Part shown: one piece after another, positions 170 through 742 of the stretch | How positions within the stretch are numbered: the stretch's first letter is position 1 | Layout: every line of letters begins with the position of its first letter | From: Psilocybe cubensis | Taxonomy: Eukaryota | Direction: 5' to 3' | Length of the DNA stretch: 64,000 nt | Assembly (NCBI GenBank): GCA_017499595.2 | Contig: CM039004.1 | Span: 434,001-498,000 of the forward strand | Translations under genes and position numbers: made by a program | Notes under the pieces: generated by a model | The model's input: the letters and a program-made list of their open reading frames with translations, nothing else | What the model was told of the DNA's origin: nothing | The model's database searches: none

Positions 170-742
170 ATGCGCGCAACTTTCTTCTCCATGCGTATTG
201 TCTCTGCCATTGTTTTGAGCGCCGGGCTCCTTGCATCTGCACACACCATGGAATCCCAGGAAACAAGCTCACAAGCGTATGTACATTGCAAGATTATTTC
301 TTTGGCACCTATATCTCACAATCCGCCCCACAGTGCTCACTCCATCGCCGGAAACAGCGACATGAACGGTGTAACTGACGAACACACACTACACTCCGCC
401 AAGTTCCGTCGCGACACACAGGCAGCACAGAGCTGCCCCGAGGGACTTTCGCAGTGCCTTATCGGATGTAGCCAGTTTGACCCTACCAACTATCAGGACG
501 GCGACTCCGGGGCGTGGGCAGGATGCCGTGCCTCCTGCAGCTTGCTTTGCAGCCCGGCGCGCGGGGGCTGCTACAAAGGATACTGTTGGGCCGGATGCGC
601 CACTGGAGTCCCTCTCGTTGAGGGATCCGAGTGGTGCTATACGACGAAGAGCTACAGTCAGAGTTATCAATATGTTGGGTGCCACAGCGATGCTGAGTGC
701 AATGTCAATTGGAAGTGCGCGGGGCCGTGCGCCGCGTTTTGA
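170..742 (+). CDS. Small secreted cysteine-rich protein with Tha p 2 allergen-like C-terminal domain
   Basis: Signal-peptide-like N-terminus (IVSAIVLSAGLLASA); probable in-frame 57-nt intron 277-333 (gtatgt...cag); dibasic KFRR site followed by a region with 14 Cys; C-terminus GCYKGYCWAGC...WCYTTKSYSQSYQYVGC...ECNVNWKCAGPC matches my recollection of Tha p 2. TATAAAA at 75. Confidence 0.85.
   Translation: MRATFFSMRIVSAIVLSAGLLASAHTMESQETSSQAYVHCKIISLAPISHNPPHSAHSIAGNSDMNGVTDEHTLHSAKFRRDTQAAQSCPEGLSQCLIGCSQFDPTNYQDGDSGAWAGCRASCSLLCSPARGGCYKGYCWAGCATGVPLVEGSEWCYTTKSYSQSYQYVGCHSDAECNVNWKCAGPCAAF

Follow-up and report, generated by a model that had tools for sequence, protein, structure and literature searches.

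A resident gene of the Tha p 2 family in the mushroom Psilocybe cubensis encodes a predicted secreted protein with two cysteine-rich parts

The stretch of DNA analysed here, 64,000 nucleotides of Psilocybe cubensis contig CM039004.1 (hereafter referred to as the window), carries near its left edge an intact reading frame on the plus strand (170–742), which runs from an ATG at 170 to a TGA stop codon at 740–742 (+) and is open through a putative intron. A tblastn search found a single copy of this gene in the 64-kb window. It is virtually certain that the gene belongs to the family of the caterpillar allergen Tha p 2 and is resident in this genome, and its product is very probably a secreted, processed mini-protein. 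The predicted signal peptide (residues 1–24; 170–241, +) was judged by eye from its basic residues, a hydrophobic run and the residues ASA before H25; similar N-termini occur in the Psilocybe homologues P0227 and P0025 and in protein P0020. It is followed by a short, acidic and polar pro-region (242–412, +; alignment A4) ending in KFRR (401–412, +), a candidate Kex2-type dibasic site, and by a mature protein of 109 residues with 14 cysteines (413–739, +). The analysis bore out the signal peptide, the pro-region ending in KFRR and the 14-cysteine region named in the original prediction, a note made from the letters alone. The mature protein consists of a fungus-specific N-module with six cysteines (C-x6-C-x3-C ... 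C-x3-C-x3-C; 434–550, +), predicted by AlphaFold2 to form a helical hairpin, and of a Tha p 2 core domain with eight cysteines (563–739, +), for which the alignment and AlphaFold2 indicate three predicted beta-strands and eight conserved aromatic positions. The C-terminal block reads GCYKGYCWAGC ... WCYTTKSYSQSYQYVGC ... NWKCAGPC.

The pro-region contains a putative in-frame intron of 57 nt (277–333, +; GTATGT...CAG), predicted from sequence and composition. Its GC content is 0.421, versus 0.579 in the flanking coding sequence, and is close to that of seven RNA-verified introns (0.428) in a neighbouring short-chain dehydrogenase (SDR) gene, the lengths of which (52–81 nt) encompass its own. 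As the intron is in frame, the mature protein is the same whether the transcript is read spliced or unspliced. A TATA-like box, TATAAAAG, can be read from the letters at 75–82 (+), 88 nt 5' of the ATG. A fungal-type intron and a TATA box had both been proposed initially; the box is present and the composition of the intron fits, but the intron itself is a prediction only.

The Tha p 2 family has no Pfam or InterPro entry; it was defined by the moth allergen, and the comparison was made with the protein of Thaumetopoea processionea, the venom Tha p 2-like protein of which is described as having 85.6% “sequence overlap” with T. pityocampa Tha p 2 (PMC11335235). Pairwise BLASTP of the window protein against “Allergenic protein Tha p 2 [Thaumetopoea processionea]” (P0040) gave 36/58 identical residues (62%, E 2e-22) over mature residues 52–108, with an identical run of eight residues and 36 identities within any 80-residue window. 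The similarity far exceeds chance, as had been supposed, but the term “near-identical” applied to it at first was too strong. The window protein fills all eight core cysteine columns and all eight aromatic columns of the family. A word-seeded search of 5.8 billion proteins yielded 16 matches, confined to the C-terminal half, at 46–68% identity (best E 5e-17) and including “Allergen Tha p 2 [Folsomia candida]”, and an exhaustive HMMER search of 1.84 billion representatives yielded 217 matches at E≤1e-3, 56 of them at E≤1e-10. A profile search returned 207 matches, the best 120 of which include proteins named Tha p 2. The protein “Allergen Tha p 2 [Psilocybe cubensis]” (P0227) matched along the full mature protein and into the pro-region (85/128 identical, E 2e-63), and a protein of Gymnopilus dilepis was 64% identical; a Tha p 2 relative is not unique to this window. 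Pfam hmmscan with the whole and the mature protein found no family at E≤10, the PDB sequence search gave only rows at the level of chance (best E 0.59), and the ESM Atlas gave no usable match.

The window protein and Tha p 2 of Thaumetopoea share the homologous core, including the motifs GC-x-KGYCWAGC, WCYTTK-x-YSQSY and W-x-C-x-GPC, the layout of a secreted precursor with the core at its extreme C-terminus (as far as the window signal peptide can be judged by eye), and a predicted three-stranded sheet after a helical N-terminal part, as described for the moth protein in PMC11335235. They differ in their cysteines. The moth protein has ten, with a predicted C1–C8 bond (PMC11335235), whereas the window protein has N at the position of the moth's eighth cysteine and lacks the moth's single upstream partner cysteine, in place of which it has the six-cysteine helical hairpin. 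Furthermore, Tha p 2 of Thaumetopoea is a setae protein of a moth, whereas the fungus has no setae.

The alignment of 222 core rows places this difference within the family. In 136 rows the last conserved W is directly preceded by a cysteine, and 135 of these 136 also have a cysteine just upstream of the core, a pairing that matches the C1–C8 bond predicted for the moth protein (PMC11335235). All 13 rows that are fungal or of the two-part form have N, D, T or S at this position, as do Folsomia P0015 and Apolygus P0031. The ten-cysteine arrangement of the moth is absent from the window protein, which is an eight-cysteine-core variant without the fifth disulfide typical of insects. Otherwise, the core is strongly conserved: its eight cysteine columns are kept in ≥99% of rows, eight of its 57 columns are ≥80% aromatic, and it ends 0–5 residues from the C-terminus in 197/225 proteins, the window protein among them. 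The parts that precede it vary, with a saposin domain in Folsomia candida P0149, a cystatin domain in P0063, a BSP-type peptidase domain in P0147 of the sciarid fly Pseudolycoriella hygida, and hydrophobic Gly/Ala-rich helices in aphids and gall midges. If the saposin, cystatin and peptidase gene models are right, the core would be a reusable C-terminal module.

Matches over the full mature length were obtained in Gymnopilus dilepis, Psilocybe cubensis, Kalaharituber pfeilii (Pezizales) and four members of Mortierellomycota (Linnemannia elongata, L. gamsii, Podila humilis and Mortierella alpina), with further two-part matches in two other assemblies and two metagenome contigs. Among 232 proteins, a hidden Markov model of the N-module matched only fungal or two-part proteins and their near-copies, and no arthropod protein. 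On these sequences, the window protein represents a distinct form of the family, in which the fungal N-module is joined to an eight-cysteine core. It shares the two-part mature protein with P0227 and other fungal homologues (14–16 cysteines) and a similar signal peptide with the Psilocybe homologues, whereas the homologues from Mortierellomycota lack a pro-region and have two extra cysteines. In Mucoromycota, the N-terminal part of Circinella minor is shorter and some forms consist of the core only; the gene models of P. cyanescens and of a second P. cubensis protein cover one half each. In metagenomes, 11 short loci were found, one of them a Podila-like two-part member and the others core-only. 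The pro-region of the window protein is much shorter than those of the other agaric and truffle members, and lacks their conserved two-cysteine block (alignment A4). A dibasic site lies at the equivalent place in five of the nine fungal members with a pro-region (the window protein, Gymnopilus, Kalaharituber and both Circinella proteins), and the P. cubensis homologue has KFAR where the window protein has KFRR; the Kex2-type site proposed originally is therefore present in the window protein, but it is not general.

In the AlphaFold2 model of the whole mature protein, the N-module hairpin is formed by helices at residues 12–21 and 31–46 and is followed by three strands. The core modelled alone (118 sequences) gave a mean predicted local distance difference test score (pLDDT) of 84.5 and a predicted template modelling score (pTM) of 0.69, with strands at 3–6, 9–13 and 25–30. 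For both models, the rows from Foldseek and VIA-align contained no chain of the cysteine-stabilized alpha-beta (CS-alpha-beta) defensin fold. The paired C-x3-C motifs on two antiparallel helices recall the plant alpha-hairpinins and vicilin leader peptides, such as those of Ara h 1 and Jug r 2. The matches to vicilin leaders were weak (Jug r 2 leader 9q1l_F, Z 3.7, root mean square deviation 3.2 over 38 aligned residues; 7lxk, Foldseek E 7), these peptides have two staples whereas the N-module has three, and there is no sequence similarity. As far as the model goes, the likeness appears to be a resemblance of form only.

Several observations bear on the residency of the gene. Positions 1–1400 of the window are present in nine runs from three studies, under three organism labels (0.67–0.98 of sampled words), and the raw whole-genome reads of run X11, from a fourth study, cover the gene at a depth of about 24–52 and the next 3 kb, the SDR flank, at 25–62. 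Contigs of runs X5 and X6 span 1–738, continue into the flank and break only at 768–892, 3' of the stop codon, where about 123 bases are swapped for about 113 others in the X5 and X6 contigs and the X11 reads. This segment is a second haplotype or an indel polymorphism, at which short-read contigs break and which contigs pass on both alleles. The GC content at third codon positions of the spliced gene is 0.637, versus 0.568 ± 0.082 for 17 long open frames of the window. Together, the even depth, the presence in several studies and the ordinary composition make contamination or chimerism very unlikely. The neighbours on the minus strand are a tandem SDR array and a DnaJ/TPR gene. The locus is an intact resident fungal gene beside spliced fungal genes, in a fungal-type genome, and both the residency claimed for it at the outset and its read-level linkage to the SDR genes were borne out.

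The tallies of named holders of the family are lower bounds. The 14 arthropods include Tetranychus urticae, Medioppia subpectinata, Folsomia candida, Apolygus lucorum, three aphids, Sitodiplosis mosellana, Contarinia nasturtii, Bradysia odoriphaga, Pseudolycoriella hygida, Eumeta japonica (two proteins) and Thaumetopoea processionea; the nine fungi are Psilocybe cubensis, P. cyanescens, Gymnopilus dilepis, Kalaharituber pfeilii, Linnemannia elongata, L. gamsii, Podila humilis, Mortierella alpina and Circinella minor. The patchy distribution across fungi and arthropods that had been anticipated was thus found, with at least nine fungal and at least 14 arthropod species. The single amoebozoan, Paradermamoeba levis (P0122, an EukProt transcriptome), could be a genuine third lineage or reflect prey or a contaminant. 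For prokaryotes, 185,579 species were scanned for the pattern, with one genome per species; of the 114 matches, none was confirmed. The contigs bearing the fungal genes are 67 kb to 4.3 Mb long, and those with the full-length matches 70 kb to 4.3 Mb; these genes are therefore not arthropod contamination.

Over the 57 columns of the core, mean identity was 56.6% between Agaricales and arthropods (44 pairs), 58.0% between Agaricales and Mortierellomycota (16 pairs), 49.1% between Agaricales and Mucoromycota (8 pairs) and 60.4% among arthropods (110 pairs); on these alignments, identity between groups carries no kingdom signal. The phylogenetic check proposed with the original prediction was run on 222 and on 71 rows, but it yielded star-like trees and demonstrated neither transfer nor its direction. 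In the larger core tree (222 rows × 56 columns), 3/219 inner branches were well supported. The 71-row tree comprised all 24 named or two-part rows and every fourth of the 186 others, with 12 long-branch rows dropped. Its supported groups were aphids with Folsomia, gall midges with many other rows, and the two moths, and the fungal rows lay on short branches in a backbone without resolution. Holding the 13 fungal or two-part rows monophyletic cost 25.6 log-likelihood units and was not rejected by the approximately unbiased test (p-AU 0.177; 71 rows). On such data, trees of 56 columns can demonstrate neither transfer nor the way it went. Within fungi, the family is probably old.

The reading that we favour overall, with some reserve but as probable on balance, is that of a resident fungal Tha p 2-family gene in which the core is the binding module of a secreted defence or surface protein. 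The 24-residue signal peptide would direct the precursor to the endoplasmic reticulum, where seven disulfides would form, and a Kex2-type convertase would cut after KFRR, freeing the mature part from the pro-region, such that the secreted product would be a compact, protease-resistant protein of 109 residues. The core would act as a rigid, aromatic-rich C-terminal binding module, tethering an N-terminal part that varies between members to a target, either at the surface of the cell or on a different organism; this N-terminal part would be a stapled helical hairpin in fungi and a hydrophobic helix, saposin, cystatin or peptidase in arthropods. A role for the core as a rigid binding or anchoring module is suggested by its C-terminal position, the conservation of its cysteines and aromatics and the varied parts that precede it, and we regard this role, taken on its own, as a tentative possibility. 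The likeliest target would be a surface polymer common to fungi and arthropods, such as chitin, in a setting of defence or surface protection. A chitin-like polymer is preferred because the named holders belong to chitin-making lineages and because the moth protein is tied to setae formation, Tha p 2 being described as expressed only during the formation of the chitinous urticating setae (PMC11335235). Chitin itself as the ligand is, taken singly, distinctly unlikely.

A number of results weigh against this reading. The model of the whole mature protein (120 aligned sequences) is of moderate confidence (mean pLDDT 77.6, pTM 0.58) and gave no readable disulfide pairing. Foldseek searches of the PDB returned no hit at E≤1e-3 and 24 at E≤10 for the whole model, and none at E≤10 for the core model; VIA-align against 48,161 chains gave a best Z of 4.1 for the whole model, for the hairpin only and at the level of any helical hairpin, and of 2.8 for the core. 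No solved structure like the modelled core was found among those compared, in agreement with the outcome of InterProScan on the moth protein, which is described in PMC11335235 as having given no classification. Profiles for hevein/CBM18 and peritrophin-A/CBM14 gave no match (Pfam, E≤10), a result that excludes membership of those families and not chitin binding as such. Aromatic residues in a small disulfide-rich domain can be merely structural, and the fused domains may stem from gene models that were merged, two of the three proteins being unnamed or automatic predictions. As regards processing, P. cubensis P0227 and P0151, P. cyanescens P0025 and protein P0020 have no dibasic site, and [KR]R precedes the core in 69/209 non-fungal members. 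Finally, the functional reading is inferred from sequence and models.

The main rival to a binding module is a free-standing secreted toxin or antimicrobial, in which the 14-cysteine protein would strike the membranes or receptors of bacteria, nematodes or fungus-feeding arthropods. Fungal defence peptides typically have a signal peptide followed by a pro-region, a dibasic site and numerous disulfides, as does the window protein. Kex2-processed cysteine-rich proteins of fungi (defensin-like peptides, killer toxins and effectors) have the same precursor layout, but they have no sequence or fold relation to the window protein, and members of the Tha p 2 family do not generally keep the dibasic site. 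A toxin would also suit the N-module, a disulfide-stapled hairpin whose sole, weak structural neighbours of similar size are the vicilin leader peptides, and the multi-copy nature of the family, with three proteins in Folsomia and two each in Sitodiplosis, Pseudolycoriella and Eumeta. The moth homologue, moreover, is located in defensive hairs (PMC11335235), but the available text of the Tha p 2 literature (PMC11335235, PMC13532929) presents an IgE (immunoglobulin E)-binding allergen only and reports toxicity for no member. Conservation of the core across kingdoms at the level found between Agaricales and arthropods is unlike that of arms-race toxins, and the core is also found behind unrelated domains. 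We therefore consider a free-standing toxin unlikely.

The origin of the gene raises its own alternatives. Contamination by arthropod DNA, an assembly chimera or a silent, decaying copy could be suspected because the gene lies 170 nt from the window edge, with its upstream side outside the window, and because the contigs of other runs break just past it, at 768–892. That break is, however, a two-haplotype bubble, raw-read depth is even over gene and flank, and the stretch recurs in three studies. The frame is also intact, 14/14 cysteines align with those of homologues, the end branch is the shortest among its tree neighbours (0.082), and none of the 40 strain differences listed, of 90 in positions 1–4000, falls within the mature-coding 413–739, all of which makes this explanation extremely unlikely. 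A recent horizontal transfer from an arthropod to the mushroom, a narrower form of the cross-kingdom transfer initially suggested, would account for a core 59–67% identical to those of insects and springtails, for the few fungal holders (at least nine named species) and for the many holders that are fungus-feeding soil arthropods (Collembola, an oribatid mite, sciarid and cecidomyiid flies); it also has a precedent in the carotenoid genes of aphids, gall midges and mites (PMC5636080). However, the N-module is present in Pezizales and Mortierellomycota and in none of the arthropod members compared, no supported branch places fungal rows within an arthropod clade, and fungal monophyly was not rejected. 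In addition, all 13 fungal or two-part rows lack the extra cysteine of the main insect class, the composition is normal and the intron is probably of the fungal type. A transfer specific to this mushroom is very unlikely, because the two-part architecture is common to Agaricales, a Pezizales truffle and Mortierellomycota, and the initial contrast of one mushroom with arthropods was too simple. Pure vertical descent of a strongly constrained gene from an ancestor of fungi, animals and Amoebozoa, followed by loss in most lineages, would fit the presence in four deep fungal lineages, in chelicerates and hexapods and in one amoebozoan transcriptome, together with a star tree in which no conflict demands transfer. 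Such descent would require very many independent losses, no non-arthropod animal is present among the named matches, and the amoebozoan record could be prey or a contaminant. Moreover, Agaricales are about as similar to arthropods as they are to Mortierellomycota, and more similar to arthropods than to Mucoromycota. We consider pure vertical descent rather unlikely, and at least one ancient exchange between fungi and arthropods somewhat more likely. An ancient exchange, the direction of which the tree does not settle, is plausible because similarity across kingdoms is as high as that between phyla of fungi, and because fungus feeders are numerous among the holders.

The favoured reading, that of a resident Tha p 2-family gene whose core is a binding module, also has a bolder form, which we regard as quite improbable. 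Here the core would belong to a type of binding module that has so far gone unrecognised, with chitin or the cuticle/cell wall as its target. Fungi and fungus-feeding soil arthropods would have exchanged it, the two-part proteins of fungi would be near the ancestral state, and it would have served time and again as a C-terminal anchor for various secreted warheads (helical hairpin, saposin, cystatin or peptidase). If this were true, the caterpillar allergen would be the setae-anchored member of a family begun in fungal cell-wall biology.

Tha p 2 is stated to be exclusive to Thaumetopoea (PMC11335235), and fungal homologues are not mentioned in the available text of the Tha p 2 literature (PMC11335235, PMC13532929, PMC8145965), supplementary files aside; likewise, the locus tags of the fungal and aphid homologues had no match in the searched literature, again excluding supplementary files. 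The cross-kingdom link exists so far only as an automatic protein name, “Allergen Tha p 2” in P. cubensis, and three features appear to be new relative to the literature searched: the two-part form of the fungal proteins, the lack of a fifth disulfide and how widely the family is spread. A medically relevant allergen thereby gains a family context, with over 200 clusters from mites, springtails, bugs, flies and moths and from several phyla of fungi, and expression and knock-out are far easier for its fungal members than for caterpillar hair proteins. The family is also a candidate in which to study how fungi and the arthropods feeding on them exchange genes. Given the identical run of eight residues and the 36 identities, the window protein would be flagged by the FAO/WHO-Codex bioinformatic criteria for possible IgE cross-reactivity, a flag of relevance to cultivated or ingested mushrooms of this group.

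Strain differences in the signal peptide and pro-region, at 206 and 259, would give A13->S and Q30->H, respectively. A paralogue of the gene lies elsewhere in the genome: sequences of X5, X6, X11 and X13 match the window copy only at 566–598 and diverge on both sides, and the P. cubensis-type homologue is matched more closely by its flanks than by the window copy. No RNA data set was listed for window positions 1–1400, and only the paralogue (word depth 66.7), and not the window copy, was seen in the RNA contigs of X13; such contigs lose rare transcripts, so the absence of the window copy from them is no measure of its expression. The tandem SDR array consists of at least four adh_short genes at about 1400–9700 (−), and in the copy at 2153–3571 seven GT..AG introns of 52–81 nt are spliced in an X13 RNA contig (word depth 542.7). 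Further along the window, in two intervals in which no tandem repeats were found, GC content rises to 0.613 at 44000–46000, around an open frame of 569 codons (44395–46104, −), and the AT skew reaches −0.368 at 48000–50000.

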